A stretch of DNA of 64,000 nucleotides from Marsupella aquatica (Eukaryota > Plantae > Marchantiophyta). This document shows positions 1 to 57,369 of the stretch, in pieces. Each line of letters opens with the position of its first letter. The stretch's first letter is position 1. The notes below the pieces were generated by a model. The model saw nothing but the letters and a program-made list of their open reading frames with translations, had not been told where the DNA came from and made no database searches. The translations under genes were made by a program, and so were the position numbers. The stretch is taken from assembly GCA_973895155.1 (NCBI GenBank), contig OZ316896.1, forward strand, positions 22,029,722 through 22,093,721, read 5' to 3'.

Positions 1-107
1 CTCCTTTCATGTAGTTTTTCTTCCCTCCAACAAAATTAATAGGAAAACAGAAAATAGGGAGGAAATAATAAACTTAAACCAAAAGCAATACAAAATTCAC
101 TCATTGC

Positions 108-1133: not shown

Positions 1134-1142
1134 TGTAAAATA

Positions 1143-2613
1143 GACACTGCTACCCTGAAAACAAAATTTTACTTTGTATTTGAAACCACCTTATCCAAGA
1201 GAGGGACATGATCATGGAGTTGTCCAGAGTACTTACTAGGTCCTTGAGGGCATTCTCACCTGCATTCTCACTTTGTCACATCCTAATTTGGAAAATTTTG
1301 TGTCCTAAATGCAAAGGTATAGGAGTCTAGTAATGCCCTCTCGCAAGCTAGGGCATGTCCTCAATAAAACCTGAGGTGCTGGTTAGGTGATTCACATGTG
1401 TGCCCAAAGCTTTCAGATCCCTTTTTAAAGCCAACTCTTTAATTACTCATAATGGCTTCATATTCAAATGAATTGACCACACCAAGTTTTATTTTAGTCT
1501 ACTAAATTTAAATTTGTACTTTTGAACTCAGAGAATCCAAAGATGAAACTTGAAGAAAAAACCAGTGTTGAACATTTTGATGTGGGAAAAAACTCCCAGA
1601 AAATTTTGGTCTTGAAAAGCCCAAATTAATTATATGTTTTTCTAAAATAGCGGTCTACAGCCAAACTAGCCAGTGTTTTGGGATTTTATAAAAAGAAATT
1701 GGATTTTCCTAATAAAATTTGCACCATTTAGGATATTTTGAAGCAGACGTGGAAAAAGGAGAAAACCCAATTTTGTCAAATATTAGTTTTCATTAATATA
1801 TCCAACCTTTTAAGTCCATATAAGATGTAGGCTCATGTCTATCATACAAGGTCTGAGCTAAGTACCTGGCTGGTTTTAAGATCAGGTAAGAGCTAGAAAT
1901 ATAACAGGCAGCTGCCTAGTAAGGACAACCCCACTTTGATAGTCTACATTTGGGCTAATTAAATCAGGAGAAAGATCAAACTTAGATTTGTTCTAACATC
2001 CTGCCTACACTTGTGCTTTCTATATCCACTCGACCCAAGCTAAATTAAGTACAAGTTCAAGCAATTTCAGCTCAGCCAAGGTGTTTTGTTCCAGCATAGC
2101 ATGCTAGTTAATCTCAACCATTGGGTCTGTTGCCATGCCAAACATTGATGGGGTAAACGCATGGCATGCAAGTTAACCTCAACCATAATTAGGTCCGTCG
2201 CGAAACATTGATCGGGTAACCGTCAACTAGTATTGGGAAGTTGACATACGCTGTACCCTGATCAGGCCCTTCTCTCTCAAATCTGTATAGGTCAGGAAAT
2301 TATCAAGAGTAAGCATTTGAATTTGGATTTTCATTGGCATAGCTTTGGATTTTGTACCCCAACTTAGCTGTTCAGAAAAAAAAACTTGCTTTAAAGAATA
2401 GGAATTGATTCAGAGCATTGCCAATATCAAAAGAAAACATGTCAGTCATGCATGTGCTACACTACTTAAAGAATTAAATCATCTGACTGTGTTAAGCTTG
2501 CGCAAGTTTTACAAGGCGTCAGTGTACAACTTGCTTGTAAGTTGTGGTGAGATGATGGACTAGGATGTTAAAAACCAGTTTTGCAAGGTCGTCCCCCGGG
2601 CACCGATGTACTC
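1143..2613. repeat. Large inverted duplication, left arm, outer part (pairs with ~17998-19452)
   Basis: Reverse complement of 18001-18030 matches 2582-2611; 1143 gacactgc...ccttatccaagaga matches the reverse complement of 19380-19452; the ORF track shows MKLEEKT at 18810..19037(-), matching 1543 atgaaacttgaagaaaaaacc. Confidence 0.9.
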
Positions 2614-2940
2614 TGTCACACCATTCTGAGTAGTGTAGTAGTATATCGTGCTATTAGAGTATGTATGTTTGGTATGAGTGCTACTGGAGCCGATAAGGTT
2701 CCGTCAGGTTTGTGTGAAAGGGTACTTCTCACTTGTGAGGCATTGAAAGGTCATCTTTCAATGTTGAGCCTTGGAGAGAGAGGAGCTTGAGTGGCTATGG
2801 TGGCTGTGAGCTCCGCTTGTGTAACGTGGATTCCTTGAGTAGTGCAAGGTGCGTTGGCTTGACATATGTGTGTGATCGGATCGGTGCGGGATCGATGGGA
2901 TATTGTTGACCGGGATCGTTGTGCCGATTATATGGAGATT
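2614..2940 (+). repeat. Terminal repeat A1 (327 bp)
   Basis: tgtcacacc...ggagatt, repeated at 11691-12017 with about 7 transitions (counted by eye). Confidence 0.95.
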
Positions 2941-2952
2941 ATATTGAAAGAT
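2941..2952 (+). promoter_or_regulatory. Candidate self-priming primer-binding site
   Basis: atattgaaagat immediately after A1 is complementary to atctttcaatgt (2753-2764) inside A1, with 11 WC pairs and 1 G-U; no tRNA-type TGG PBS at this position. Confidence 0.55.
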
Positions 2953-3210
2953 CACATTCAAAATCTGTTGTACGGACTGTGTGGACAGAAGTTTGATTGA
3001 TTGAGTTATCGACCGTTCGTGGTAGCTCGGATCGTGTGTTATTATCGAACAGATCGTTGGTATCTTGACCTGTATCGTTGTTGTCCGATCGGCCTGCTTC
3101 CCGATCGATGTACAGATCTGTGATTGGTGACAGGTTTTGAGTTGGAGGTCGATTGATGATTTGTGGAGGAAAGCGAATGTTGAGTAGATGTTGGACAGTG
3201 GAAGTCGATC

Positions 3211-3300
3211 CGTGAGGCTTCAGATCCGATTGCCGGCTACTGTGAGGCTTCAGATCTGATTGTCGGCTACTGTGGGGCTTCAGATCTGATTGCCGGCTAT
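3211..3300 (+). repeat. 3 x 30-bp tandem repeat in the element leader
   Basis: Ygtg(a/g)ggcttcagatcYgattgYcggctaY at 3211, 3241 and 3271. Confidence 0.9.
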
Positions 3301-3529
3301 TGTTGGACGATGTTGGCAAGGCGCAGGTGAAGCGACGGCTCTTTTCCTGAAGGAACGGAGCTGCCAATGCCCCGTGCGGCGGTATCATCATTTCAGTGAA
3401 AGAAACGAGGGTCAAAGGTGTTGAATCAAGCTACTGCCAATTCTATGGAAGGGCTGCATTTTTCATGAAGGAAATCGACAGTTTTCGGGAGCTTTTCGTG
3501 AAGGAAGTAGTCATTTTTGGGGTCAGGTG

Positions 3530-3722
3530 TGAGGCGCACGAGGTCACCCCATCCCGAAAGTGCTCCCAACCGCGAGCGCGAAGTCACCCATCGCAAGCAC
3601 AAGCAGGCGCGAGGTCGAGGTCACCCATCCCGGGGCTATTCCAGGCCGTGAGCGTGAGGGGAGGCACAAGGTCGAGCGCGAGGAGGTCACCCATCCCGGG
3701 GCTATTCCCAGCCGCAAGCGCT
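3530..3722 (+). repeat. GC-rich imperfect repeats in the element leader
   Basis: gtcaccc(c)atc core occurs four times; gaggtcacccatcccggggctattcc occurs twice. Confidence 0.8.
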
Positions 3723-4276
3723 TAACTAGAAAATTCTCATCCCACCTTGTGTACACGCGAGTTTTCACAACTTGTTGTTTAGATTCAAGTGCTAGGGGGC
3801 TTTATACACTTTCCGGTTTGCTTAGAGCCTTGTTTTGGGCCAAATCAGAGGCTCTTTAGAGGTTTTTGATAGTTCTGAGTTCATCTAAATACACAAATTG
3901 AACCAATTGTGCATGGTTTCTCATCTATAACATTGGGACATCATGAAGCCTATTATGAAGGCCTTTCATTGAACATTATGAATATTTGTTTGATCAATGT
4001 GTGATCACTCTTGGTGTGGAGAGTTAGTGTTTGACTATTCTTGTTGATTGGATCCTCTTCACACTTGTTTCCTGTTTATGCGCCATGTTGGTTCGGTGTG
4101 GGCGCTTGATTCCATAGGAGTGATCCGGGTTTGCAACTGGACATTCTAGTGTGCTGTGTATTTCTCTCCTGGTAATGTTGGAGTGATGCCCAACACACCA
4201 TGGTGAGTGCTTGTGGTGCTGACAGGGATAGATTGCCCTTAGGGTTAGCACATAGATTAGGTTAGGGTTGGTCACC

Positions 4277-6190
4277 ATGGATTCTTCTGGTGCTGCTGGA
4301 TTACCCGATGGACGACGGACCGGTTTCACTCGGAGTGGGGCACAGTTTCGGCCAGCGGCATTGGTAGCAGTCAGCAGTGCAGCTTCAGACAGTGATTCCG
4401 ACGAGGACTCAGTGATCAGTTCTCCTCGTCATCAGGTGGTTGCACCTTTGTTGTGGGATATGGACGCGATGTACGGGGCTACAAAGGGCCCACGATGATA
4501 CTCTGGTGCAGTTGGCACAATTGATCTGGATGACTTCATCCAGGAGTTTGATACGTGGTGCGATATGCAGACATTGCGTAACGCCACGTTGTTTACCCCT
4601 TTCATGGCATGGAAGGGATTATTTCAGCATTTGGAGGGGCCACCCATGGATGACTACCATGAGTTTCGGAAGGCTCATTTGGTTGAGATTGAGGCATGGA
4701 GGCAGCATTGGTCACCTAATTACGTGTCCATCACCTATGGCACTAGTGCGGCTGCCCAACCCATTGCCACAACTGCTGCCTCTTCTAGCAGCACTAGCCA
4801 GAGTGGCACACCATCCACCAGCAGCACTCCAGCAGCATCCACCGCTACTCCTGCCGGTGTGATTGTGACAGGAATTGGAGTTACGCCAGCATTTAATCCT
4901 GTGGTGGAATTCTTTGAGGTACTGAAGCAGAACTATCAGGGTGTGAGAACTGATAAGTTGAAGGGTCTCCAGGAGTTCCAGCGCAAGACTAGAGAGAGTC
5001 TACGTGAGGCATACACTCGTATGCGCAGATTGATCACTGTCACCAAGGGAGTGACAGAGGCTCAAGTAGTCCAGTTTTGGTATGCAATTTTGGACAGAGA
5101 ATTGCGACGCAGAGTGAGAGATGTCACTCTGCTTAGGGATGTAGATCCCACATTAGCAGTTGTTTTCACCCTTTCTGAGCGCATTGACCTCAATATGGTG
5201 AATGAGAAGGTGGTGACTTCTGGATTTGCCAAGGAAGCACCAAAGGTTGCATCTACATCCACACCAGAGCCTACTGCATGGAAGAGCCAGAGGGAGAAAC
5301 CTACTGCACGAGAGTCTACCAACCAGAGACCTGTGCCCTCTTATGCTGGACAGCAGTCAGGATGTTGGACCTGTGGTGGGGATCATGCACAGAGATATTG
5401 CCCAGATCATAGAGGATCAGGGGGAGCATCAACGCCTGATCAGCGACAGTGTGATCATTGTGGAGCTCCTGGACACACTAAGGATAGGTGTTTCTCACTC
5501 CACCCTGAGTTACGGAGGGGAGGATCCCGTACACATGATCAGGGAAGAGGAGGAGGAGGAGGATGTGGTCGTGGCATGCCACATGCAGGGAGACAAGGAG
5601 GTGACGCTGCCCCTCCTGTAACCATAGATCCAAAGGATGCTAAGATTGCTCAATTGGAGCAACAGCTAGCTACCATGGCTAGTTCCCAGGTGAGACCTAC
5701 TTCGGGTGATGGGGCATCTACATCCTATGGACCTTCCACATCCCATGGTCCTTCCACATCCTATGGAGCTGATGGAGATCTTGCCACCATGGGATTCATG
5801 TGTGGCACTGCACATATTGATGCATCAGCAGCTTTGACACGTGGGGCAGCCAAAGCTCTTGAGCCCCGAGGAGCAGTAGTGGAGTTAGATCCACAGAGGG
5901 GGGATGCACGTTGGCAGACAAAGCTTCCTCAGTCTTTTACATTGTCAGAGACAGTTCAGACTGCCTCTATGAACCCGGTTCGGACAAACCCTGGCGTGGG
6001 TAAGTTGGCAGAATCTGGTAGTGATACAGTAGGGATGACAGGTACCCTACTGGGGGTGGCTACTACCATAGTACGCACCCCATTATTTTCAGCGACAGAC
6101 ATGAGGAACTTGGGAGTTGGTCCTGCAAAAGTGTTCAGATTGGCAGCTACACTCTATGAGGACACTCCAGTTGTTGCTTCCCATTCATAA
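4277..6190 (+). pseudogene. gag: Retroelement Gag with two CCHC zinc knuckles
   Basis: ATG at 4277; ORFs 4268..4498 and 4565..6190 share a frame across a TGA at 4496; knuckles CWTCGGDHAQRYC and CDHCGAPGHTKDRC. Confidence 0.85.
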
Positions 6191-6211
6191 GCAGCTTGCA
6201 GTGTTGAAGCA

Positions 6212-6800
6212 GTGAAGACCATACCACCTACTGCTACTAGTGAGACATGGCATGCAGCAGCAGCGAGGTTGGTGGATTTACCAACACGCCCTGCATTTGA
6301 GAGGACTAGGTTTAAATCTAGTGTTGTGTCATTGGATAATCGGAGTGGTATCTTCCGATTAGTTGGGCCTTCTGGAGCAATATACCAGCCAGAGAGAGTG
6401 TTACTGGATACTGGTGCTCAGCCCTTGATGTTGGGGAAGTCTACCATACGTGGATTGGGATTGCATCCAGAGGATTTGGAGGATTGTCCCTTTCCCATTC
6501 AGACTTCATTGGGGGGACCTACACCTACACAGCATATCACCAGGAGACCACTTGATCTGAGGATTCAGGAAGGTCATACCATAGATAGCTCACAGATACA
6601 GGCGCGAGCTATTCTGACTAAGGCAGAGTCATATGATGTGTTGGTGGGATGTACAGTGCTCTACCCCATGGGATTTATTCTTGATTTTTGGGAGGAATCA
6701 GTGTCATATAGACCTGATTGGCAGTCAAGAGATGCTCGATTGAGCAAATTGCCAGTGAGATTTAGTGGACCTGTGGGAGGCCTAAATCTACACCATTGTC
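6212..6800 (+). pseudogene. Retroviral-type aspartic protease
   Basis: VLLDTGAQ catalytic motif and YDVLVG; same frame as gag after a TAA at 6188; frameshift near 6780. Confidence 0.85.
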
Positions 6801-6933
6801 TTTGGCAGCATTTAGTGGTGTAATTGCTGGACCTGATGATTTGATTGAGGGTAATGCGCATGCAGCCGATGTACTACCATTGGAGGAGTCTCATGAGGAG
6901 CACATCATGTGAGGATTACCTGTTGGCAGTGTT

Positions 6934-8250
6934 GTGCCACCAGTGTGGGGCACTGCACAGGCCTTGCCACAGGCAGCAGCACAATTGGTACATGATGCAT
7001 GGCGTCATGCTTTTACACCACAGTCAGGAGCAGAGCAGTCTCTTGCAGATGGACCTGTGACTCTTTCACCATTGGATACCACTCCTATTGCTTGGCAATA
7101 TCCACCGGAGGGTATTTGTTTGTTGGATCTTTTTGGTGGGATTAGCACTGGATTGGCTGTTGTTCTTCAGGCAGGAATTCCTGTGCATCGTTATTTGTAT
7201 GTGGAGATAGATGAGACAGCACGGAGGGTCTCATTGCGACATGTGGCTATGTTGGTGGATAGATATCCACAGTTGCTGCCAGTGGATGCTGTTCGTGGTT
7301 ATCAGCATGCACTACCTGCTGATATTTCATTGTTGGGGGCGGATCATCTGCATCGTGTTGGCCCCATTGATTTGGTGATTGCTGGTTGGCCATGTCAGGG
7401 CCAATCTAGAGCTGGCGTTGGGCATGGACTTCATGATCCACGCTCTGCATTGTTTTGGGAGATGTTACGGGTGCTGCGTCATCTCCAGCTACATCAGACA
7501 CAGTCTCCAACATACATTTTTGAGAATGTGCCATTGTTAGGTGATGATCGTAGTTGGATTGTTGCCAGTGTTCACCAGGTGAGGTCTTGGATTGGACCTG
7601 CTGTGTTATTGGATGCTGCACGTGTGGGTTCTCGTGCACATCGTCCACGCTTGTGGTGGACTAATTTGATCCCATGTGAGGTGCTGAAGCGCGCATTTGA
7701 CAGCATTCCACGCTCACCAGCCTTAGTGGTGGATGATATTTTGGATCCAGGGCGTCGTGCACAGGGTGTGACCCAACCTGATAGACCTCCATTGGCAATG
7801 GTCAATGCAGTTGGGTGCCCACGTTGTGCATCACCCACTCTTGTAAGCCACTCTGTTTCATATGCATTCAGAGTAGGTGGCCCTGGACTTGTGTGGGACA
7901 CAGCTCTCCAGCAGTTACTAGAGCCTACTGCTGATGAGAGAGAGCGTGCTATGGGATTTTTGACTGGCACCACTGCAATTGCCTCTGTGTCAGAGGGTTT
8001 GCGGCGCCAGGTTCTTGGTCAAGCAATGGACCTGAATTGTTTGACTTGGATTATCAGCTTGGGAGTAGCTGAACAGTTGTGGATGCGCTCTGCTGGAATT
8101 ACTGATTGTCCCTCGGTGAGCTTGCGGTCCACTGAGACAGTACTGACCACAGTTGGGGGCGAGCAGACAGTCCATGGACCTATGGCAGGATTGGCCAAGG
8201 CTGGACAGATTGTTGAGCAGGAAGGGACTGCTCAATCTACTGCTAAATAG
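6934..8250 (+). CDS. DNMT3-like C5 cytosine DNA methyltransferase domain (core ~7114-8070) within pol
   Basis: Motifs in canonical order: I LDLFGGISTG, II VEID, III DI, IV GWPCQG (catalytic Cys codon at 7393), VI FENV, VIII SRAHRPRLWWTNL, IX ERERAMGF, X RQVLGQAM. Same frame as RT (8296..) across a single TAG at 8248. Confidence 0.92.
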   Translation: MPPVWGTAQALPQAAAQLVHDAWRHAFTPQSGAEQSLADGPVTLSPLDTTPIAWQYPPEGICLLDLFGGISTGLAVVLQAGIPVHRYLYVEIDETARRVSLRHVAMLVDRYPQLLPVDAVRGYQHALPADISLLGADHLHRVGPIDLVIAGWPCQGQSRAGVGHGLHDPRSALFWEMLRVLRHLQLHQTQSPTYIFENVPLLGDDRSWIVASVHQVRSWIGPAVLLDAARVGSRAHRPRLWWTNLIPCEVLKRAFDSIPRSPALVVDDILDPGRRAQGVTQPDRPPLAMVNAVGCPRCASPTLVSHSVSYAFRVGGPGLVWDTALQQLLEPTADERERAMGFLTGTTAIASVSEGLRRQVLGQAMDLNCLTWIISLGVAEQLWMRSAGITDCPSVSLRSTETVLTTVGGEQTVHGPMAGLAKAGQIVEQEGTAQSTAK

Positions 8251-8295
8251 CAATCATCGGCTATCTCTTCTACCCTACAAAGAGATATTAGGGAT

Positions 8296-9740
8296 TTGGT
8301 GGAGAGTTGGGAATCACAGCTTGGCCCTAAGTTAACAGGGGAGGAGAGACGTGGCATGCATCGATTCCTGAAGAGTTATTGGAATTGTTTTGCATTCAGC
8401 ATGAAGGATTTGGGGACATTGAAGGGCCCTGATATTCAGATTGAATTGGCTAGTGATGCGCCAATCTTTCGTAGACCATACCGTTATAGTGACATGGAGA
8501 GAGCTCTGATTCAAAGCAGAACTCAAGATTTGTTGGAGGCTGGATTGGTGGAGATTTCATATGGGGAGTATGCATCTGCCACAGTGATGCCAACCAAGAA
8601 GGATGTGCATGGCAATTACATAGATAGGCGCATGTGTGGTGATTACAGACCTATTAATCGCCAGACAAAATCTGATCGATATGCCAAGCCCACACTTGAG
8701 GAGATCTTTGATGATGTGGGGCATGCAAAGGTTTTTAGTTCATTGGATTTGAGGGCAGGGTACCATCAGCTTCCAATTAGGCATGCTGACAGGTCCAAGA
8801 CAGCATTCTGGGGGATTGATTTTTATGGAAAAGATTGTTTGTATCAGTGGTTATTCTTATCATTTGGGTTGAAGAATGCACCAGCTGAGTTCCAGAGAGT
8901 CATGGATCGAATCCTTGCAGGTTTGGATTTTGTCAGATGTTATATTGATGATATTTTGGTCTATTCTTCTACTGTGGAAGAACATCAGTAGCACTTGCAG
9001 ATTGTGATGGAGAGATTGAGAGCACATGGGTTGAAACTCCATCCTGGCAAGTGTAAATTATTCCAAAGACCAGATTGAGTATTTGGGCCACACTATATAC
9101 CCAGGGGGATTGGGTGTACAGCAGACTAAAGTGGAGGCCATTACACAGATTCCTTGTCCTACTGATGTGAGTAGAGTTCATGCATTCTTGGGATTGGCGA
9201 GCTACTACAGGAGGTATGTTAAAGGATTTAGCCAGCTTGCTAAACCTTTGACCATACTCACTAAGTTGGATCAGGAATGGATTTGGGGTGATGACCAGGA
9301 GCATGCCTTTCAGGAGTTGAAGCAAAGGTTGGCATCATCCCCTATTTTGAGAAGACCCATTTCAGGCAAACCATTTCAGCTACACACTGATTGGAGTGGA
9401 GTAGGACTTGGAGCAGTGCTGACTCAGAAGGATGATGAGGGGAATGAGTTTGTTGTGGCTTATGCCAGTAGATCAAACAATTCAGCAGAGGCTAAGTATA
9501 GCTCTTATGAGGGAGAGTGTTTGGCAGCAGTGGTGGGCTGTTGCACACTTTCGTTGCTACTTGTTTGGTAACCCCTTCACCTTGATCACTGATCATCAGC
9601 CTCTTAAGTGGGTAATGGAGTCTGACAAGCTTACAGGGAAGCTTGCACGATGGACATTGTTGTTACAGGAGTATGATTTCCAGGTGGTGCATAGGCCTGG
9701 AAAAGTGAACTTGGATGCAAATGGATTAAGCCACAATCCA
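8296..9740 (+). pseudogene. pol: Reverse transcriptase and RNase H (Gypsy-type), disrupted
   Basis: RMCGDYRPIN, SSLDLRAGYHQ, FGLKNAPAEFQ, YIDD (8941); RNase H LHTDWSGVGLGAVL, YSSYEGE, TDHQPL; stop at 8989 and frameshifts near 9070 and 9535. Confidence 0.93.
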
Positions 9741-10099
9741 TGTACCAGTCAGCAAGATGAGACTAGAGCCAGATGGCATGATGAGTCAGATAAGGAGATG
9801 GTGCCAGGATGGCATGCATCTGCCTTTCTTTGTTGGGTGCCAGCATATAGTGGATCTGTGGACTCTACCTCATTGGATGGAGTGGATGATGAGTCTTCAG
9901 ATGTGGATGTTAGTGAGGTAACTACTGGACAGCAAGATATTCACAATGATGTGAGAGTGTTGGAATATCTGTGCAGTGGTTCTATTGTTGGCAGTGTTGA
10001 TGCCAAGGAACGTGACAGGGTTCTACAAAGAGCCAAGAGGTTTTGATGGGAGGGAAACCATCTTTTGAGATTACTGCATGATGGTAGAGTGTTGGTGGT

Positions 10100-11377
10100 C
10101 CCAAAACCATCATAGAGAGTACATTTGGTGCGACATGCGCACGAGGAGTTGGGTCACTTTGGTGTGAAGCGCACTTACAGCTTGCTGTAGACACAGTATT
10201 GGTGGCGTGGTATGCACACTCATGTCCAGCAGTTGATAGCTAAGTGTGTGGTATGTGATAGAGTGAGAGCATCATTTAATGCTCCCACTCCCCAGTTGCA
10301 CCCGTTACCGATCATGGGTTTGGGATATCGTTGGAGTTTGGATTTTGCTGGTCCATTACCTCTTACCCAACGCCATAATCGGTATGTTTTGGTCATGGTG
10401 GAACACTTCTCCAAGTGGATTGAGCTAGTGGCGTTGCCAGATAAAGCCAGTGGAGGAGTTGCTGCTACATTTTTGGATCGTGTACTCAGTCATTTTGGAG
10501 CACCAACTGAGGTGTTGACTGATCAGGGAACTCAGTTCCATGGAGAGTTTGAGAGTTTGTGTGAACAAGCTCTGATTGATCATTGTACTACCTCTTGTGA
10601 TCATCCTGAGGCAGATGGATTAGCTGAGAGAGTTGTGCAACTGTGAAGAGAGGATTGCGTAAGTATGGCTTGCAGGTTGGTCATCTGGGAGATTGAGATC
10701 TCTAGCTACCTTGGTTAGCTATGGGCTATCGTTTCAGTCGGCAAGCATCACTTGCATCCTTCTCACCTTAATTTTTGCTCTATGGTAGAGAGCTAGATTT
10801 GCCAGCAGCTATTCGTCGTGATGTTGCATCAGTTGTGAACTTGGATGATCCTGATGTTTGGGTCAAGGTGTGTTCAGAGAGAGCACGGGTATTTCAGCGA
10901 GTGATGCCCATGGCTTTCGACAACCTTGCCATTGCCCAACATCGTGATACTTTGAGGTATGCCACTATTCATGGAGGAGGTTACCGTGCAAGCATTCGGC
11001 GATTTCATATTGGTGATTATATTTATTTGCAGCAGACAGCACCCACGACACTTGATGTGACCGCAGGCCGGACAATCTTACGTGTGCGTGAAGTGTTGCC
11101 TTCTGGTGTCCTGATGTTGGAGGGACGCGATGGTATGGTTTGGAAGGATCATGTGCGCAACTGTGCACCATGTCACCTTCCCAACATTGATGGTACAGTA
11201 GATCCAAGCTTGGCACATGTTCGTGCTGGCTTGAAATGTATGTTGTGTGGATCTGCTCAGGGAGCAGCTACTATGTTGATTTGTGATAAGTGTTCTAGAG
11301 GATGGCACATGTCATGTTTGACACCACCATTGCAGGTGATTCCTAGTGGATCATGGTTGTGTCCTCAGTGTTGGTGA
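10100..11377 (+). pseudogene. DDE integrase with C-terminal PHD finger (11237-11374)
   Basis: HHCC (HEELGHFG...CVVC) and catalytic SLDF, LTDQG, DGLAER; PHD C4HC3 CMLC...LICDKC..GWH..C...WLCPQC; several stops and frameshifts. Confidence 0.92.
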
Positions 11378-11540
11378 AGCCGACTAGTTATCATTTGTGT
11401 TCTCTTGGCAGATATGGATTGCAGGTAGGTGATCGATGGGGCTCACTTGCACCCGGCCTCCTGATCTTCACACCTAAAAAGGTGTATATCAACCTTGTAG
11501 AACTCATGGCTAGCTAGAGTTAGGGGACCTTACTCCCAGC

Positions 11541-11550
11541 TAGGGGGGCG
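11541..11550 (+). promoter_or_regulatory. Polypurine tract
   Basis: taggggggcg immediately precedes B1. Confidence 0.65.
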
Positions 11551-12155
11551 ATTGTGGGTTTTGGACATGTGTGGACATGAGTTCCACTTGTATTCCATTC
11601 TCTTGTGTTTGTGATGTGGCAGTGTGACTATGTCTGGATGTATGTGACAAGCGATGTATGTTGTGTAGCGATATGTATGCGCACGACAGCTGTCACACCA
11701 TTCTGAGTAGTGTAGTAGTATATCGTGCTATTAGAGTATGTATGTTTGGTATGAGTGCTACTGGAGCCGATAAGGTTCCGTCAGGTTTGTATGAGAGGGT
11801 ACTTTTCACTTGTGAGGCATTGAAAGGTCATCTTTCAATGTTGAGCCTTGGAGAGAGAGGAGCTTGAGTGGCTATGGTGGCTGTGAGCTCCGCTTGTGTA
11901 ACGTGGATTCCTTGAGTAGTGCAAGGTGCGTTGGCTTGACATACGTGTATGATCGGATCGGTGCGGGATCGATGGGGTATTGTTGACCGGGATCGTTGTG
12001 CCGATTGTATGGAGATTATTGTGGGTTTTGGACATGTGTGGACATGAGTTCCACTTGTATTCCATTCTCTTGTGTTTGTGATATGGCAGTGTGACCATGT
12101 CTGGATGTATGTGACAATCGATGTATGTTGTGTAGCGATATGTATGCGCACGACA
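11551..12155 (+). repeat. 3' terminal repeat block B1(11551-11688)-gc-A2(11691-12017)-B2(12018-12155)
   Basis: B1 and B2 are 138-bp copies with 3 differences; A2 is a copy of A1; the B1/A2 junction is the palindrome GACAGCTGTC. Confidence 0.95.
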
Positions 12156-14311
12156 ACTCCCAATCCAAATGGCATGTAGGTACTTGGTTTGGGTGCAACC
12201 TGAAATTTGTTACAATCAAAAGTTACAGCAAGAAGTCTATGCTTCACTAGCTATATATTGAGGTATGCCTACTATAAGGCATGGCTATGCGGCATTCCTG
12301 TCCAGTTTGATTTTGTGCAAAGAACCCAGGGAACATTCAAGGCAGGGCAAAGTGTTGAAGTTACAAGAGCATGCACTTTGGTATGATTTTAATTTCCATG
12401 ACTCCAACTTGTGAAACTTAAACTTTTTCTTATGCATTACAAACAAATCGATCAGGTTTTGCGGCACTCACATCAAATCGGTCTGGATTAAAAGTCATGG
12501 GATCTTTATAGTTGGCAGGATCGCGGTGCATGAAGTTTGTTAGCGCAAGCACTCCCCACCCCTTCGGTACCAGGAAACCTGTGCGCAATTATATAGCAAA
12601 TGTTAAATTGGGGCTTGATCGCAGTTAAGTCGATGAGGAATTCGCTGACAATTTCATTAATTAGCCAGTCCTTAAACAATCTCCAGATCTTCAGTAATTT
12701 AGACGGCGACCTGCAGGGAAGAGAGTAAAATCTAGATCGATACTCAGATCACCCTGCTCGCATTCAATTGGAACCACCTCCAACTCAACTTCATTTCATG
12801 AAGACGAAGCAGGTGGCTAGCTAGCACGATCGGACTCTCTTGGAGTTGATCCCGAGATGCCCATATATATTTGAGGTGCAACAGCCAGAGCCCTGGGTGC
12901 GAGGTGGCATGGGCATGGTCCTTGCCAGGCTACTGAGATATCATGTATGCATGTTAATAAGAGACCATGTTCAGCTCAACGATTGCACCAATAAAGCTAG
13001 GAGAAACTTGCCCACCGTCGTACACAACGTCTTGAGCCGCCTTTCTCGCAATTACGAAGCTAATTGAAAGTCTCCTTTGTACTTCTTGGAAGAACTGCAC
13101 ATCCAAACTCCAGAGCTGAGTACAAATCATAGTTTTCGTCCACCTTAATTGTTCGTCATTGGAGTACAATAGATGCAACCTGGAGAAGCCAAGCAATCCA
13201 TCTACTGGAGTTTTTGTCAAGCGGCAGCGGGGACGGCTTTCGGTTCTTCCCACACTGCCTTCACCCTTTAGCCGTCGCTGGGTTAGTATGTTCCATCAAG
13301 GACAAAGCGTGTCTGATAATCCACATATCAATGTACCTTGCCCGCATAGACCATTTTCTTCGTATCCTCCCAAGTAAGCCTTGGCCCATCGACGGACACG
13401 TCTTTGCCTTCGAGAATTTCTTGTTGCTCGGCCTACACATATAAATGCAGAGGATCATCCATGCAGATGAGAATTCATATATAACACGAATATATGACTG
13501 TGTGAGATTCATTCAATTCATGTGCAACAAGTTTGGGTGGCTACGCTTGTGTGCGAGTCAGATACTGGCGGAGTAGATTCAGGTGACGAAACGCCTCTAA
13601 AATTAGACAAGGGCGGTAATTTGAACCAGAAAGAAACTCCAGGGATATGATTGCTTCTTGAACTTGTCGAACTGATCACATTTGGAAATTTCGATCGATC
13701 AAGTAATTTCTATCTTGGCTGAAGACGCCAGCTAAGCCAAATAAACCAAAGTGGGACCTACAAGCTCCACTTATACCTGAATCCGCTTGAAGATATCGGG
13801 ATTGTCCACGAGATACTTCAGTGTCCATGCCAAAGTCGTAGAAGTAGTGTTAAGGGCACCAAGCCAAGCTGCAATCACCTCGTCAATTATTTTCTCTCCA
13901 TCAAAATATTGCACCTCCTCTCCTCGTGCTTTGTCTCAAGCTTCTAACAAGATTCTTAACACATCAGAGTCGGTATCCTCTTGGCTCTCTCTCTGTTCCA
14001 CGATGGATTTCATATACGACTTCAAAGCGTTTCTTGCCTGTGTCGACGACCCAATATATCGTCAGTTCTTGTCATGTTAAGGCGTCTTCATTAGTTTTGC
14101 TCAAACTCTGCGCTGGTTTTTGAGCTGGATTTTGAACTTTCCGATAAATGCAAGCACCTAGCCTAGGCTCTATCCTAAATCTTTAGAGGTGCGTTCAGCC
14201 TTTTGACTCTGTCTCGGATCTGACTCACATCTAGTATGCTTTTTGACTCTTGGACTGATTCGTTCAGATGCATTCAGGGTTTTACTAATATCTAATATAT
14301 GATCAAGGTAG
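12156..14311. repeat. Large inverted duplication, left arm, inner part (pairs with ~15146-18000)
   Basis: Mirror ORFs 13214..13444(+) and 15964..16251(-), 13787..14080(+) and 15287..15538(-); similarity ends at aaggtag (~14311) versus ctacctt (~15146). Confidence 0.92.
13334..14080 (-). pseudogene. Inverted copy of internal cytochrome P450 exons (I-helix region)
   Basis: Minus strand encodes EKIIDEVIAAWLGALNTTSTTLAWTLKYLVDNPDIFKRIQ and AEQQEILEGKD...WEDTKKMVYAGK, with the intron retained. Confidence 0.8.
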
Positions 14312-14342
14312 CCGTCGCTGGGTTAGTATACCCATGCTGCAG

Positions 14343-16071
14343 GTATGGAAGCATATTCAAGTCTTCCATATTTTTGCAGAAGACCATACTTGGCACGACT
14401 CCCGACTTTGCAAAGTTCATTTGTTTCAACCTGGAACTCTTCCCAGTGCAATATCCAATAAATGTGGAATACATTGTCCCTAATGCAGTCTCTTTCGGGG
14501 ATGGCCCACAGCATCTCGCTATCAAGAAGCTCTTCAAAACTTTAGTGTTTCCAGATACTATCGCGAGTATGATCCCAGCACTGGAGAGCATGGTTCTTGA
14601 AAATTTAGCGTCTTGGGAAGAGAAAGGGACCGTTTTGGGCAGTGACGCGACGAAAGTGGTGGGCTGTTTCTCTTGATTGCTCATAATTTACTATGTATCT
14701 TAATATATATGTTCGATAGATCTCAACTGAAGTTGTTCTTTCCTTCATAGCATATCTCCAAGCTAGGCTTCGTGTTCCACCTTTCCTGAACGCAGCATGC
14801 CTTCTATGTGCACAGTTAGCTTGTTGCAGACACGAGCGCGTACCTCGCATTCAAAATTAAGAGCATCCGCAGCACACCAGAAGGAGATTTGGCAGTGAAA
14901 AACATGTTGACTATGATCGCCAGCATTGACGGTGTACCAATAAATCTTCCAGGAACTGCTCACCACAGAGGACATCAGGTGCGCGCGTGTGTCTAGACTA
15001 AAACTATCATATATCACAGTGCCAAAAACACCGAAACGCATACCGGGAGACAGGATCTTATAAAGCGAGGGAAATGGCCCAAAGGATGAACATGAAGACT
15101 GTCTTTAGCCTCACCGGCTTGTGACTCTCGGGTCTGACTGACTGCCTACCTTTACCATATATTAGATATAAGTGAAACCCTGAATGCATCTTAACGAATC
15201 AGTTCAAGAGTCGAAAAGCATACTAGATGTGAGTCGGAACCGAGATTTAGAGGGGAGCCTAGGTTAGGTGCTTGCATTTAACAAAACTAACGAAGAGGCC
15301 TTAACACGAGCAAGAAGTGACGATTGGGTCGTCCACGCAGGCAAGAAAGGCTTTGAGGTCGTACATGAAAACCATCGTGGAACAGAGAGAGCGCCAAGAG
15401 GATACCGATCGAGTCTGATGTGTTAAGAATCATGTTACAAGCTCGAGACAAAGCACGAGGAGAGGAGGTGCAGTATTTTGATGGAGAGAAAATAATTGAC
15501 GAGGTGGTTGCAGCTTGGCTTGGTGCCCTTAAGACCACGGCTACGACTTTGGCATGGACACTGAAGTATCTCGTGGACTATCCAGATATCTTCAAGCGGA
15601 TTCAGGTATAACTGAAGCTACTAGGTCCCACTTTGTTTTTTTGTTTGGCTGGACCATATCTCCGACCTTCAAACTGTTTGTTCAATTCTTGGCTGGCGTC
15701 TTTCAGAAAGGTACTCGATCGATCAAAATTTGAGAATGTTATCAGTTCGACAAGTTCAGGAAGCAATCATATCCCTGGACTTTCTTTCTGGTTTAAATTA
15801 CCGCCCTTGTCTAATTTAGAGGCCTTTTGTCACCTGAATCTACTCCCCCAATGGCTGATCTCGCACATAAGCGTAGCCACCCGAACTTGTTGCACATGAA
15901 TGAATCTCACACAGTCATATATTCGTGTTATGAATTCTCATCTGCATGGATGATCGTCTGCATTTATGTGTGTAGGCCGAGCAACAAGAGATTCTTGAAG
16001 GCAAAGACCTGTCCGTCGAAGGGCCAAGGCTTACTTGGGAGGATACGAAGAAAATGGTCTATGCGGGCAAG
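14343..16071 (+). pseudogene. Truncated CYP85-clan cytochrome P450 (CYP707A-like), lacking ExxR, PERF and heme-Cys exons
   Basis: Exon RYGSIFKSSIF...GPQHLAIKKL...ALESMVLENLASW (14343-~14657), I-helix exon ending 15606, exon 15977-16070. Downstream is the inverted arm; no FxxGxRxC was found. Subfamily assignment is tentative. Confidence 0.78.
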
Positions 16072-19000
16072 GTAAATTGATATGCGTCCTGATACTAAAA
16101 CCGCCTGGATAGCTACTGAATAAATTCTCTTTGAGTCGATCATCCGGCTCAGATATGCTTTGTCCTTGATGGAACATACTAGCCCAGCGACGGCTAAAGC
16201 GTGAAGGCAGTGTGGGAAGAACCGAAAGCCGTCCCCGCTGCCGCTTGACAAAAACTCCAGTAGATGGATTCTTTCGTTTCTGGTTGCATCTATTGTACTC
16301 CACTGATGAACAAGGTGGAAGAAAACTATAATTTGTACTCAACTCTGGAGTTCGGATGTGCAGTTCTTCCATGAATTACAACGGAGACTTTCAACTAGCT
16401 TCATAGTTGCAAGAAAGGCGGCTCAAGACATTGTATACGACGGTGGGCAAGTTTCTCCTAGCTTTTTTCGTGCAATCGTTCAGCTGAACATGGTCTCTTA
16501 TTAACATGCATACATGATATCTCAGTAGTGGCAAGGACCATGCCACCTTGCACCCAGGGCTCTCGCTGTTGCACCTCGAATGTATACGGGCATCTCAGGA
16601 TCAACTCCAAGATAGTCCCATCGTGCTAGCTAGCCACCTGCCTCGTCTTCATGAAATGAAATTGAGTTGGAGATGGCTCCAATTGAATGCGAGCTGGTTG
16701 ATCTGAGTTTCGATCTAGATTGTACTCTCGTACTTGCAGGTCGCCGTCTAAATTTACTGAAGATCTGGAGATGGTTTAAGGCCTGGCTAATTACTGAAAC
16801 TGTCAGCGAATTCCTCATCAAATTACTGCGTTCATGACCCAGTTTAACCATTTGCTGTTTAATTGCGCACAGGTTTACTAATACCGAAGGGGTGGGGAGT
16901 GCTTGCGCTGACAAACTTCGTGCACCATGATCCTGCCAACTTTAAGGATCCCATGACTTTTAATCCAGACCAATTTGATGTGAGTGCCTCAAAACTTGAT
17001 CGATTCGTTTGTAATGCAAAAGAAAAGTTTAAGCTTCACTAGTTGGAGTCATGGAAATTAAGTCGTACAAAAGTGCGCTCTTGTAACTTCAACTCTTTGC
17101 CCTGCCTTTAGTGGGTCTCTAAACCCCTAGTGTATTTTCTTTCTTTGTATATCTATAGACTTAGGAGGCATTACCCTGCAGGTGAGGCACTGAACCGTGT
17201 GCCAGCCTGGCCTGGAAATTCTTACATTGAATGAGAATGCAGATAAGGTGCAAGGGATGTCAATTTAAGAATTGCAGGGTAAGCTCACATTTCATCGAAC
17301 ATACCAGATCTTGTGGCCATGCTGTCATACGGAAGTCCTGACACAGATTGGCAATTTACCTACGTAGGGACTGGACCAAACAGCAGTACAAAATTAGGGC
17401 TGGAAAGTCCACGTATGGGAATGCCATCAATGACATGACCATGAACTACGGATCATGGAGTGCTTTGTGGGCAATTCATGAAGACATTTTGCAGGTCCCG
17501 CCGGTCCCGCCTAGACCACCATGAATGTGATCCTTTTGCAGGAGTAGAAGTAGTACTGCAGGCTAGACTAATAGTTCTTCCTATCGCGGATTCACTGTTG
17601 GGTGCCCCGCCGGCGCCTGTTCACTGACCGGTCTTTTGGGGTTTGCCGTTCCTTTCTGTAGTGGTTAAACTGCTGGTTTGGCTTCCTTTCTTTGGGGCCT
17701 GCTTCTCTCCTGGTGCCGGCCTCTCCGGTCCTGTGGGCTTCTTGACCTTTGGTCCCCCCGGGTGCCGACCCCTTCTTGTGGGCCACCCTTTTTGTATGCT
17801 GGCTTTTTGAATGAATTTCAATTGGTTTTTTCGAGGCAAAAAAAAAAGAATTGCAGGGTAAAATTGAATAGAATTTAGGGTTTACAAAATTAGCTAGTGA
17901 TGTAATATAGAATTCTTGCTGCAAATTACTTTTGATTGCTAATGTAAACAAATTCCAGGTTGCACCCAAACCAAATACTTACATGCCATTTGGATTGGGA
18001 GTACATCGGTGCCCGGGGGACGACCTTGCAAAAATGATTTGTAGTATCCTAGTCCATCATCTCACCACAACTTACGAGTAAGTTGTACACTGCCATCTTG
18101 TAGAACTTGAGCCAGACCAACATCTTCAGATAATTTCATTCTTTAAGTAGCGTAGCGCATGCATTATTGGCATGTTTTCTTTTGATATTGGAAATGTTCT
18201 GAATCACTTCGTGTTCTTTAAAGCAAGTTTTTCTGACCAGCTAAGTTTCAGGGTACAAGATTCACAAAATCTATTAAAAGCTTTGCCAATAAAAGGTCCA
18301 TATGAATTCAAATGCTTACTGTTGATTTTTTCCTGACCTATACAGATATGAGAGAAAAGGGCCTGACCAGGGTACGGCGCATGTCAACTTCCCAATACTA
18401 GTGGGTGGTTACCCCATCAATATTTGGCGACGGACCTAAATAATGGTTGAGGTTAACTTGCATGCTATGGGGTTACCCCATCAATGTTTGACAACAGACC
18501 TAATGGTTGAGATTAACTAGCATGCTATGGTGGAACAACACACCTTGGCTGAGCTGAAATAGCTTGAACTTGTACTTACTTTAGCTTAGGGTAAGTGGAT
18601 ATAAAGCACAAGTCGGTAGGCAGGATCTTAGAACCAAGCTAAGTTTGATCTTTATCCTGGCTTAATTAGCCCAAACCAAGACAGTCTAAGTAGGGTTGTC
18701 CTTACTTAGGCAGCCTGTTATATATATTACCTGATCTTAAAACCAGGTACTTAACTCAGACCTCGTATGATAGGCATGGGTCGACATCTTATATAGACTT
18801 AATGGTTGGCTATAATAAAAAGTAATATTCATATATTGGGTTTAATTTCTCCTTTTTCCACATAATTATGCTTACAAATATTCCAAATGGTGCAATTTCT
18901 CTTAAGGAAAATCCAAAATTATAATAAAATCCCGAAACGCTGGCTACTTTGGCTGTAGACCCCTCTATTAGAAAATGTATTCCGGGAAATTTTTCCACAT

Positions 19001-19452
19001 CAAAATGTTCAACTCTGGTTTTCTCTTCAAGTTTCATCTTTGGATTCTTTGCGTTGAGAGGTACAAGTTAAAGTTTAGTAGACTAAAATGAAACTTGGCA
19101 TGGTTAGTTCATTTGGATATAAAGCCATTATAAGGAATTAAAGAGTTGGCTTTAAAAAGGGGAGTTGTGTACCTGGGATCTGAAAGCTTTGGGCACACAT
19201 TTGAATCACCTGAAAATCACCTCAGGTTTTATTGAGGACATGCCCTAGCTCGTGAGAGGGCATTACTAGACTCATATACCTTTGCGTTTAGGACACAAAA
19301 TCTCCAAATTAGGATGTGACAAAGTGAGAATCCTGGTGAGAGTGCCCTCCAGGACCTACTCCAACTCCATCATGACCATCTCTTGGATAAGGTGCTTTCA
19401 AAATAAGAAGTAATTTTTTTTTTTAGGGCTTAAGGTTTCAAGGAGCAGTGTC
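15146..19452. repeat. Large inverted duplication, right arm
   Basis: Continuous reverse complement of 1143-2613 joined to 12160-14311, apart from a non-matching segment at ~17110-17888. Confidence 0.92.
17283..17845 (+). mobile_element. 5'-truncated non-LTR (L1-like) insertion
   Basis: 16-bp TSD aagaattgcagggtaa at 17267-17282 and 17846-17861; poly(A) tail; absent from the left arm. Confidence 0.8.
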
Positions 19453-21928: not shown

Positions 21929-22672
21929 TTATCTCGAATCAGTGGAATTAATTACGAAATCCATCGCCGAGTAACCACAGAGGCCGAAAGCGCAGGTTCC
22001 GCCCTGGCAGACATTGCCACATCTCCCGCAATTTCTGGAATCGCTCTCAATGGCTACGCAAAACCCCGAGCAGCAAAAGTAGCCGAATTTGCAGGGATTC
22101 CCGCAACCACCACAATTCAGCCCGTCGAAATGAATATCAGTGCACCACCCGTTGTGGCAGCAGGTGGACGCAAACGACTCCGTGGTCCACCCTGCGACCG
22201 ACATGCACATGGTGGGATCCGTCAAGCATCCGGAGTTTGACGACAGCTTCCTCAAATTCCCCACATCTTTCTTTTGTGTCTGCTGGTACTGGTGTTGCTG
22301 GCTTCGCAGCAGAGACGCCCTAACGTAACTGCTTGTCTGAAATCGTCTACGATGGTGAGGGTGGTGGTGATGGTGGTGACGGTGTAACACTGCTTCGACG
22401 TCTTCTCGGACGATCTTGTTCGAGGAAGCTCCGAGCTCCCCAGTCGCGTTAACAACAACATCAACACCTGAACGACGCCTGTTGTCGCTTTTGATATTGT
22501 CGAGGTTCGTCGTCTCTGTTGAGGAGGATTCATTGAGAGCGCTAACAGTGAAGAATTGCGTAGAGATGATGAGAATTACACCAATTAGTGAGACGACCCT
22601 TCGAAATTTAAAGCTCTGAGTAGCAGCAGCAACGAGAAAAGTGACAGAGAATTGGGAGGGACATCGTTCCAT
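21929..22672 (-). CDS. STIG1-family secreted cysteine-rich protein
   Basis: Hydrophobic N-terminus, His/Gln-rich spacer, C-terminal Stig1 Cys pattern TCC...NCGGCGNPC..GYFCCSGFCV..D.RNCGRCGNVC..G.CAFGLCGY; intronless 247-aa ORF. Confidence 0.85.
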   Translation of the reverse strand: MERCPSQFSVTFLVAAATQSFKFRRVVSLIGVILIISTQFFTVSALNESSSTETTNLDNIKSDNRRRSGVDVVVNATGELGASSNKIVREDVEAVLHRHHHHHHPHHRRRFQTSSYVRASLLRSQQHQYQQTQKKDVGNLRKLSSNSGCLTDPTMCMSVAGWTTESFASTCCHNGWCTDIHFDGLNCGGCGNPCKFGYFCCSGFCVAIESDSRNCGRCGNVCQGGTCAFGLCGYSAMDFVINSTDSR

Positions 22673-25600
22673 TTTAGTCTAGACTTCCTCCGGACAGTTC
22701 GCACAGTGGTGTTGGCCGGCTTGCCAGCTGCATGCGAGAGGTTGTATACGGTCGGTAGCAGTTCCTTCGTATGTGGACCCAACGAACGTCGATTCACCGC
22801 GAACCGTTACGTCGTGGAATACCGGTGCAGATTCCAGTAAGAAGTTGCAGAATTGATGCCGCTGCTGGCTGAAGGATCAACGAATGGAACTGTGCGTACA
22901 TAGTTACCAGAACTGCCACGCAAACCCTCCGTCGACTGCCTTGCGTAGAGATAATGATGGAATCTTTCCGACTCCACTGACTCTTTCCCTGTCTTTTCTC
23001 TTCCGTCCTCCTGCCACTATTGAACTACGTGTGGGCTAAAGCTTTCTCTCCATAGAAGGCAACCTCAGCTCCGTCTCCAAGGAAACGAACTCAGCTCGAG
23101 CACTTTCGCACGAACGCAGTGCTCTCTCTCTCTGTCTTTCACGATAATTTACTGTTAGGGGTCCGGTTCATTCTGAAATTCATCTGATTCAAATCTTGGC
23201 CACCATGAATCCAAGACGTACATCACCGCTCACGTCTTACAATTGACTACAGTCGATATGTATCCCTGAATAAATCTGTCTCTGTTGTACTCCATGTCCA
23301 ATATCCCTTGGTGCCCGTGGACTAGTGAATTCGTTCCTCATTCTCTAATTGTACTGAAAATGTACTTTGGATTGAGCTGGATTTTTCCTCAGGCATGCAA
23401 TGATGTAATTATAACACAGCTGCACATTGGAAATTCGGATTTCCAATGTCATGTCCTTCTCCGCACACCGCTCTTGCCATCATTGCGAGTGGAGCGCCTG
23501 GAAACCCAGCGTGGAATCGTGGACGCACTACACTAATAAACAATCCAATCAGAATATCTCGAGCTTATCGGTCGTCGCTTTCACAATACTTCGTCTTACG
23601 AATCTGCACGCATGTCTTTTCCGGTCTCGATCCTCGCTGAACTAAACTAACTATAGAAAACTCTTTCTCTGTTTCTCCTGCTCGTCTCTCTCTACGGTTT
23701 CACTCACTTCTACGCATCTCTCATCCGACTCTCTCGTGGTCGGAGATCAAGTGCTGAACAAACAAAGAAAATAAAGATTCCCACGCTTGCACGCATTCAT
23801 ACTCAGACTGAATAATTGGTTGTCTAAATTTCTCAGCAGATCGTTCCCTCGAAAGCACTAATTCTTGCACGGGATGCTCAATTCGTCGAGCCCCGACCAG
23901 AATGCGCTCCCGTCAGCAGCAGCAGCAACATCGGGCAGTGCCATGCTTGCAAAGCATTGCAACGAGTGGCCCAACTACGAGACATTCGACCTCTGCCCCG
24001 CCGGAAGCTTATAAATGCAGCGCGAAATCAGGGAATTCTTCAAACCATAGCAATAATTGCATGATCGAAGAAAGATTCTAACGCTCTCGCAAAAGAAATT
24101 GCGCGGGTCCAGCCGTCCACGCTCTCGTTAATTCGCTGGCGCAATGCTCAATCGAAACGGCAGTGTCTGCAGAAAGGCGTTTCGTGGGTGGGTGGGTGGG
24201 TGATCGATCAACACCGGGCCACATGTACAGGAGCGATCCATCGATCAATCGACCAGCAAGCTCGTCGAATTGTGATTATCTCCTCTCCTACTTTCTTCTC
24301 GTCTCTTTGTGCAACGCTCTCCCCTCCTCCTCCTCCTCCTGTTGCTGCTTCGATCGATTTTCGCTCGCTCATCATCGTTTTGCTTCCGTTCCTCGTGGTC
24401 TACATTTGTACCGAGAGGTAATCATCGTTTCCGCATGAGCAGGATTGCAATTAGCGAAGAATTGCCGAAGACTGTTGCGGATTTAGTTTTGGTCGTGAAC
24501 TGCTACTGCAAATTCGAGTCTTGCGGATTATTTTAGGGGCTTTTATTACAAGAGGACCGGACACCAAATGACCCTTTTTAGATTCCTTCTTAATGCACTT
24601 TGTGATTTTTGTCATTTCTCATTTTATTTTTGTATATTTCAGTGAGTTGTTGTGAGTTGTTGGAGAAAATGCCCGGTTGAGATTAATTTTTATTTATCTT
24701 AAATTCACTTAGCAAAGTAGCAAATTCTCTGAATACAATTTTTCATAATACAATTTTTCCAGGCAATTGAGGGAGTGTCAAGGGCCATAGAAGAAAGTAC
24801 TCTTGACATGCAAGACAGCCTCAAAGCTCCCAAGTTTTCCCGGGCACTGTATCCTACCCTTTCCAACTTCCAATGCATTGGGTCTGCCTTTCTATACATT
24901 GTTTTTTGTTTTTGTTTTGAGAAAATATATTTTTTGGTTGTTGGAGAAATATAGCAATGTGGAAAAGAATTACTAAAGTCCTTTTGCCTCTGGGACCATG
25001 TTTCCCTTTTTGGCATTTTCTCCTTTCATTGGCACTCTCTACATGGATATAGAAGATATATAGAAGACTGGCCTAAATCCATGTTCTTTAAACTTGAATA
25101 GAGGTGAGGACCAAAAAGTGCATCTTTCATGCATTCTTCAAGTCCCTAGCTCCATCATGCCGCTCCATTGAGAGCTTCCTTGGCTACCACCAGCTACTCC
25201 TCAATGCCCTGGTTTGAATGTCATTACCAACTGGTTGCCCTTTCAACTACTTTCAAATGAATCCATCTAGTTCATAGACTTGCATTAAATTGTTAGTCAT
25301 TGTGAATACTCACCCCATCGCCCCCTTGTCATTTCTCACCCTCACCTTTCTAGTTACGCCCTCAAAGTCATGGTCTAGAAGTTTCACTCTTGACCAGAGC
25401 CCTAACAGTAGATTTTGATTGCAATTTAGTAAGTTGAGCCTGAATGCCCATTATTTTTAATCTTAATTTATAAAAATGATGACAAAGGTCATCATGCATG
25501 ATCATCAATGCACACATCCCATACTTTTTGCCATCCACATAAATTTTGGTGGGGCCCTAGAGTCTCGGTCTAGAGGCTTCACTCTACAAGCCTAGACCAC

Positions 25601-56774: not shown

Positions 56775-57369
56775 GAAAAAAAAGGTTAAAAGATGAAGGT
56801 GGTGGCGGCCCTTGAAGGAGCTATATGCAAGTGGAATGTCGACCTGTGGGGTCAAGGTTGCTCTCAAGCAGGGCCAGTCCAGCCCAGTCAACTGTATTAC
56901 CTACCCTCGCATTTATCCGCCGCATTGCCGCTTCCGACAGTAGAGTTGCACGCAACTTTCTATGGCAGAGCTGTTGCTGGATAAGAGACGAAATGCTCGA
57001 CAGAATCACAATCATCTCGCACTTGGAGCTTTGCTGCTGGCTGCTGGTCTCGTTTCTGCTTCGTTCTCGTCTCTTGGCTTTGTGGGCCCTATTTTAGGAA
57101 AGTGGATCTTGTTTGGATTTTGATTGCTGGCGAGGCTCATCTCGTTCACCACTGAGTCAGTCAGTTCGGACTTCTGAGCGCCAATTGATTTGTACCGGAG
57201 ATTTTGTCGAATGCTGTGGCGCGAAAGGGTTGCTGTCTATTAGTCAATCCGCCTCAATCCCGAAACAAGTATTCACACGAAGTCCTAATTACTTGATAGC
57301 GACATTGTGGGTAGAGTGAGATACCTCTTCAGTGTTTCGCATTGACCTGAATCTCACTTTCGCACGGCG

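Follow-up and report, generated by a model that had tools for sequence, protein, structure and literature searches.

The window analyzed in the current study is a 64,000-nt stretch of a Marsupella aquatica contig. It contains a Ty3/Gypsy element of 9.5 kb (positions 2614-12155), which is bounded by 4-bp ACTC duplications and carries a cytosine methyltransferase (DNMT) in the domain order gag-PR-DNMT-RT-RH-IN-PHD, together with a Ty3-like reverse transcriptase (RT) and a DDE integrase (IN). The element is located in the left arm of a large inverted duplication of host DNA. Both of its ends are fixed by the empty insertion site preserved in the inverted paralogous right arm. The features of the element and of the rest of the window are collected in table 1.

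Table 1. Features of the window, with positions in window coordinates and the evidence for each.
Feature	Position	Strand	Evidence or remark
Inverted host duplication	1153..19428		centre near 14300-15150; arms 80-92% alike
Left target-site duplication, ACTC	2610..2613	+	identical 4 nt at 12156-12159
Terminal repeat A1, starts TGTCA	2614..2940	+	97.9% identity to A2, 7 differences in 329 nt
Predicted transcript 5' end and self-primer, 3' arm of hairpin in A	2753..2764	+	pairs with 2941-2952, 11 Watson-Crick pairs and 1 GU
Predicted self-priming primer-binding site, directly after A1	2941..2952	+	different, fully pairing 12-13-mers there in L060/L062 and L162
gag, zinc-knuckle-like region, broken by stops at 4496 and 6188	4277..6190	+	tblastn of intact Marchantia P0003, 51% over gag-PR
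Aspartic protease (PR), DTG at 6407	6191..6823	+	PF13650 E 0.001, below its cut-off; 81% identity to P0001
DNMT3-like C5-cytosine methyltransferase and linker; core 7093-8100, catalytic Cys 7393-7395	6913..8247	+	PF00145, PDB matches, fold, motifs
In-frame stop, type I readthrough context TAG CAA TCA	8248..8256	+	conservation across loci; motif definition PMC5382211
Reverse transcriptase (YIDD 8941-8952) and RNase H (RH), broken	8251..9700	+	PF00078, PF17919, PF17917; best PDB matches Ty3 RT
DDE integrase, H2C2 zinc finger and rve, broken	10100..11236	+	PF00665, PF17921
C-terminal PHD finger	11237..11377	+	PF00628 E 1e-11
Polypurine tract AGGGGGG, then CG	11542..11550	+	same tract before B1 in Sphagnum-type loci and L162
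Repeat B1, ends CGACA	11551..11688	+	about 97% identity to B2
Palindromic B1/A2 junction GACA-GC-TGTC	11685..11694	.	identical in L001, L020 and L162
Repeat A2	11691..12017	+	repeat comparison with A1
Repeat B2, right end of element	12018..12155	+	repeat comparison with B1
Right target-site duplication, ACTC	12156..12159	+	match to 2610..2613
Empty insertion site, right arm of duplication	17999..18002
STIG1-like host gene	21929..22678
Apyrase host gene (GDA1/CD39)	34381..35037
Tandem array	41245..46500		units of about 1.1-1.3 kb; adjoins U-box ORF
Decayed non-LTR-type retroelement	48338..51778	-	weak RT match
SAM-dependent carboxyl methyltransferase host gene	57346..57981

The TG...CA ends and the short target-site duplication of Ty3/Gypsy LTR elements are present, but the two matching terminal LTRs of the standard type are absent; the repeats are split instead, in the order A-internal-B-A-B, with about 2% divergence between repeat copies. 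The same layout was found in three related metagenome loci (L050, L059 and L063), with 4-bp target duplications in L050 and L059/L063. At its A2/B2 junction (10837-10855), which is precise in other copies, L050 has a 17-nt filler and two extra bases, and this filler may be a product of end joining.

Comparison with intact relatives showed that the window copy is dead, a point absent from the original prediction. It has at least 11 internal stops (4496, 6188, 6910, 8989, 9076, 10044, 10113, 10188, 10694, 10703 and 10769) and several frame changes, one of which falls near 6790, from the protease to the DNMT frame. The observed/expected ratio of CpG was 0.19-0.47 in the element and 0.65 in the flanks, a depletion that is compatible with self-methylation and host methylation alike and separates neither.

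The DNMT lies in a stop-to-stop ORF of 445 aa in frame 1 (6913-8250), which is terminated by the TAG at 8248-8250 and directly followed in the same frame by the RT ORF (8251-8991). In the profile search PF00145 matched at 39.7 bits, well above its cut-off of 22 bits (E 5e-10). Motifs I (7126-7140), II (7198-7212), IV (GWPCQG, 7384-7401), VI (FENV, 7519-7530), VIII (HRPRLWW, 7639-7659), IX (7936-7959) and X (8014-8031) were located in canonical, unpermuted order. The prediction of a C5 methyltransferase in the RT frame, with one TAG between the two, was thus borne out. DNMT3A/B/C accounted for 29 of 30 PDB sequence matches. The AlphaFold model (pLDDT 93) retrieved DNMT3 chains in all 33 Foldseek matches listed (best E 8e-21, TM 0.70/0.82), and its fold matched DNA-bound DNMT3A. 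By similarity of sequence and modelled fold, on which the label is based, the domain is DNMT3-like and unpermuted, not DRM, as had been proposed. When phage ORFs were compared with the domain, one of 79 scoring ORFs ranked above DNMT3A (56.7 vs 51.7 bits), the trees having been built without host DNMT3, and two of the three Atlas clusters among the matches listed were phage-dominated. Searches of viral contigs with three single-protein queries returned no close relative, and a profile scan of viral contigs returned distant phage enzymes only.

The catalytic Cys is kept in 173 of 175 aligned DNMT domains, the Glu of motif VI in all 175, and the two Arg of motif VIII in 173 and 172. The Pro preceding the catalytic Cys in motif IV is replaced by Glu in 73 of the 175. 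The enzyme is likely to be active on DNA. It is quite improbable that selection has preserved the domain not as a DNA methyltransferase but as a binder of nucleic acids or an RNA methyltransferase within the particle. A Gag fusion would suit packaging, the Glu substitution would fit such a role, and the Klebsormidium domain showed no activity in yeast (PMC5890265), but near-invariance of the catalytic Cys, of the Glu in motif VI and of the two Arg in motif VIII, and the match of the fold to DNA-bound DNMT3A, argue against it.

Named relatives of the DNMT were found in Marchantia polymorpha, M. paleacea, Riccia, Calypogeia, Sphagnum, Closterium, Klebsormidium nitens and Scenedesmus, the nearest being those of Marchantia (72%) and Calypogeia (71%). 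These nearest relatives, and the STIG1, apyrase, U-box and carboxyl-methyltransferase genes of the window, point to a land plant as the likely host. A protein search without length limit gave 237 clusters at E 1e-30 or better; two other protein searches were limited to 2000 residues, so that fused forms were under-counted in them. With P0309 as query, no match was found in genome contigs. For comparison at the DNA level the best 80 of 146 metagenome loci were used. RT or RNase H was found downstream of the DNMT in 57 of the 62 loci with enough downstream DNA, and gag or PR upstream in 39 of 49 with enough upstream DNA; as these loci were found via the DNMT itself, copies without one could not show up in either count. 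In the divergent, decayed DNMT elements L055, L064, L066, L077 and L078, inverted PR-DNMT or RH-IN-PHD segments adjoin the match.

Median dN/dS between the window and 23 gap-free copies among the 80 loci was 0.18 for the DNMT, and for RT it was 0.11 (24 copies). Among the dead copies of one subfamily (the Sphagnum-type, see below) the values were 0.56 for the DNMT, as decay had set in, and 0.49 for RT. Comparison of these sequences indicates that the DNMT is a stable part of a Gypsy family and not a one-off capture, and that the domain is under purifying selection, as anticipated by the original prediction, which had asked for a ratio below 1.

The junction between DNMT and RT was covered by 52 of the 80 loci (50 distinct sequences). 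All belong to a single subfamily, termed Sphagnum-type, whose linker matches a Sphagnum fallax protein. A stop occupies the junction in 51 of the 52 (40 TAG and 11 TAA), CAA is the next codon in 51, and the other codons of the 61-codon junction stretch have at most four stops each; as the 52 loci are one subfamily, only three independent lineages are represented at the DNA level. L162 is an intact element, in which open ORF1 and ORF2 are joined in frame by TAG CAA TCA; its DNMT is 50% identical to that of the window, and its linker does not align. This sequence (1-9285) is a eukaryotic-type retrotransposon recorded as a collapsed circle in a cyanobacterial MAG, likely a contamination, and its CpG is barely depleted (o/e 0.73-0.84). 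The protein P0001, which is 86% identical, terminates at the same residue as the window ORF. In all four sequencing runs, which represent close copies and may include the source DNA itself, no variant of at least 3% was listed for 8241-8256; positions 8240, 8257, 8258 and 8260-8262 vary.

Judged by this recurrence, the TAG between DNMT and RT is a conserved feature and not decay. The opposite had been assumed originally, namely one open gag-PR-DNMT-RT-RH-IN-PHD frame, with the DNMT made at the Pol level beside RT and IN, into which the TAG would have come by mutation. The window copy does have many true decay stops, and fused PR-DNMT-RT ORFs exist in other branches (P0148, P0290 and Closterium P0291), but a stop in 51 of 52 loci, in the intact and distant L162, and at the same residue of P0001 makes that model hardly credible, and for the branch of the window element the conserved junction stop refutes it. 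Persistence of the TAG in three DNA lineages contradicts the single open frame. The placement at the Pol level is contradicted by intact ORFs of Marchantia (1278-1281 aa), which stop 69 aa past the DNMT domain; intact Gag-PR-DNMT frames of M. polymorpha include Mp4g09160, Mp5g06330 and MpVg00370. The conserved stop, and Marchantia proteins that end just past the DNMT, indicate that the DNMT belongs to the Gag-PR ORF.

Tobamoviruses such as TMV have a type I readthrough signal with the sequence UAG-CARYYA (PMC5382211). When this signal was placed in a plant reporter, readthrough was about 20%, and UAA works too (PMC2754532). Both the window and L162 conform to it with UAG CAA UCA, here between DNMT and RT. 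The context is rare, being found at 3 of 825 TAGs in the window and at 1 of 101 in L162. The last base of CARYYA is wrong in all 52 Sphagnum-type loci, 50 of which have TAG CAA CCC. No consistent RNA structure was found downstream of the stop (z -0.7 in the window, -4.5 in L162 and -1.4 in L060). We consider that RT-RH-IN-PHD is probably made by stop-codon readthrough.

It is rather unlikely that pol is translated from a spliced or internally initiated mRNA, with the TAG as splice acceptor or plain stop and the DNMT still on Gag-PR. In Ogre elements an intron is spliced out between PR and RT. At the Sphagnum-type junction the TAG follows a T-rich run, and there is an in-frame ATG at codon +3; both would suit such an mRNA, and the similar gag-stop-pol junction of Tca2 is described as having a promoter and no readthrough in a yeast reporter (PMC2194720). 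The 11 TAA variants are no argument against splicing, because TAGs elsewhere in the Sphagnum-type loci decay at the same rate. Against this reading, the frame has been kept over unrelated linkers in three lineages, and the hexamer CAATCA is common to the window and L162, neither of which has an ATG before the conserved RT start. In L162 there is no ATG within 150 nt of the stop, and the first in-frame Met is codon 117.

With the DNMT on the Gag-PR product, the enzyme would be made at the capsid level and each particle would receive many copies. In the proposed pathway, translation of a single RNA would in most cases stop after Gag-PR-DNMT, and ribosomes that read through the stop would add RT, RNase H, integrase and PHD to a smaller share of the protein. 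The DNMT would be packaged at the capsid level, in many copies per particle, released there by the protease, and would then methylate the new cDNA of the element, so that new insertions would arrive already methylated; the PHD finger would steer integration. Taken as a whole, a first frame of Gag-PR-DNMT ending at a leaky UAG, and hence DNMT at the capsid level that likely methylates new cDNA, is slightly favored. The chances that cDNA is the substrate are about even. Methylation of cDNA is also the role proposed for retroelement DNMT3s in PMC5890265.

Among 210 related proteins three layouts were found, i.e. PR-DNMT ending in a stop, PR-DNMT-RT in one ORF, and RT-RH-DNMT-IN-PHD (43 proteins). 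The last of these forms one branch in both the DNMT tree (support about 0.97) and the RT tree (0.77), indicating that the DNMT moved position at least once; the trees were made with FastTree, without host DNMT3, and domains below 280 aa and RT below 190 aa were left out. A large clade including P0164 of the chlorophyte Scenedesmus has a homologous DNMT between RNase H and integrase. Capsid-level dosage is not needed throughout the family, since in other branches DNMT and RT share one ORF or the DNMT lies between RNase H and integrase.

The same architecture could also serve an enzyme whose targets lie outside the particle, be it host chromatin, the site of integration or further copies of the element, in which case Gag-level output would limit or tune the spread of the element. 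Such output would far exceed the need of one cDNA per particle, and a self-limiting role has been raised in PMC5890265. On the other hand, no targeting module is part of the domain, the PHD as sole reader lies on the integrase side of the stop, and the RT-RH-DNMT-IN-PHD order ties the enzyme to the cDNA complex. We regard action outside the particle as unlikely.

The window offers further clues to the replication of the element. A tRNA-type primer site is absent from the element. None of 1310 other leader 12-mers in the window pairs as well with the predicted transcript start as the site directly after A1. In L060/L062 a different 12-mer pairs at 12 of 12 positions, 31 nt below a TATA-like box (0 of 1063 controls as good), and in L162 a third sequence, a 13-mer, pairs at 13 of 13 (0 of 1166). 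Pairing of primer and site across lineages falls to 7-9 pairs, indicating a covarying complement. At least 11 Watson-Crick pairs were found in 6 of 17 Sphagnum-type 5' ends, in one case at a second site, the remaining 5' ends being decayed or deleted. The pairing count was used in place of a duplex-energy scan, which gave no discrimination in the window, where 58 of 113 scan windows did equally well. Self-primed reverse transcription of the Tf1 type is the likely mode of replication indicated by these complements.

As in Tf1/Sushi and Tcn1 (PMC6317226), the predicted transcript start is complementary to the bases that immediately follow the 5' repeat, and Tf1-type self-priming has been predicted for Tcn1 elements of mosses in the same paper. 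The window element differs from these chromoviruses in its split repeats, its DNMT, and a PHD finger in place of a chromodomain, for which no match was found after the integrase.

Given the polypurine tract ahead of B1, a terminal repeat B-GC-A would be expected at both ends after ordinary reverse transcription. The integrated A-B-A-B form would correspond to a circle of this product that had been opened at GACA-GC-TGTC, a palindrome shared by three lineages. A symmetric two-LTR-circle model was rejected as incomplete, since it predicts some copies with B upstream of A1, and none was found among the 16 5' ends listed.

A wider reading, which we consider doubtful, is that an ancient green-plant Gypsy clade doses its DNMT by recoding and that methylation may mark the junction for the integrase. 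The leaky amber of bryophytes would then lead to capsid-level DNMT3 and pre-methylated cDNA, and methylation would mark which of two GACA-GC-TGTC circle junctions is opened by the DDE integrase. A junction marked in this way would explain the one-sided A-B-A-B ends.

The closest published system is KnitGypsy-Dnmt3 of Klebsormidium nitens, described by de Mendoza et al. (2018, PMC5890265) as a Gypsy element with DIRS-like repeats whose Pol ORF includes a DNMT3. Shared with it are the Ty3/Gypsy domains, an unpermuted, intronless DNMT3-like domain, purifying selection and DIRS-like split repeats. The dN/dS of the window DNMT also lies below the Ka/Ks of 0.2 that characterizes this type. The K. 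nitens protein KFL_013780020 (P0212) is 36% identical and has the CCHC-PR-DNMT order of the window. According to that paper DNMT and RT of KnitGypsy-Dnmt3 are in one ORF, whereas a conserved in-frame stop lies between them in the window element. The capture is described there for the K. nitens lineage, whereas the hosts found here include liverworts and mosses, and, again unlike KnitGypsy-Dnmt3, the related chlorophyte clade has its DNMT between RNase H and integrase. In yeast, no methylation was obtained with the Klebsormidium DNMT, a result called inconclusive by the authors (PMC5890265).

SymbioDIRS-Dnmt3, whose enzyme is described as methylating CG in yeast, likewise has A-coding-B-A-B repeats and a retroelement DNMT3 (PMC5890265). 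DIRS elements use a tyrosine recombinase, whereas the window element has a DDE integrase (rve) and 4-bp target duplications; neither a tyrosine recombinase nor the lack of target duplication, by which DIRS/Ngaro elements are recognized, was found. Gypsy-7a_cRei of Chlamydomonas is also a green-lineage Gypsy element with a PHD, and no DNMT is among the domains listed for it (PMC9940879). EpiLTRs are green-lineage Gypsy elements with a cytosine methyltransferase, too, but their DNMTs are described as the sister group of DNMT4 and are explicitly set apart from Gypsy-DNMT3 (bioRxiv 10.64898/2026.05.21.726589). The Gypsy-DNMT3 type is cited as known from streptophytes (PMC12344493; bioRxiv 10.64898/2026.05.21.726589).

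The capture of a DNMT3 by a Gypsy element is therefore already known, and because the repeats and the PR-DNMT order are common to the published Klebsormidium element, the window element is less new than the original prediction held. In the open-access papers searched, neither the layout with a conserved, probably leaky stop nor the intact Marchantia frames were found. Bryophyte copies, the stop and its readthrough, and self-priming likewise went undescribed there, though figures or supplements could contain some of this.

The function of retrotransposon DNMTs was left open in the 2018 paper (PMC5890265). Klebsormidium is poorly tractable, and the intact frames of Marchantia polymorpha make the question testable in a genetic model. 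For annotation of bryophyte genomes, the results mean that many DNMT genes are borne by elements and could be mistaken for host enzymes. With its 237 clusters and three domain orders, the family is broad enough to suggest a mobile module of considerable age and not a Klebsormidium oddity, and a conserved leaky stop would imply that there has been selection on the dose of DNMT relative to RT.
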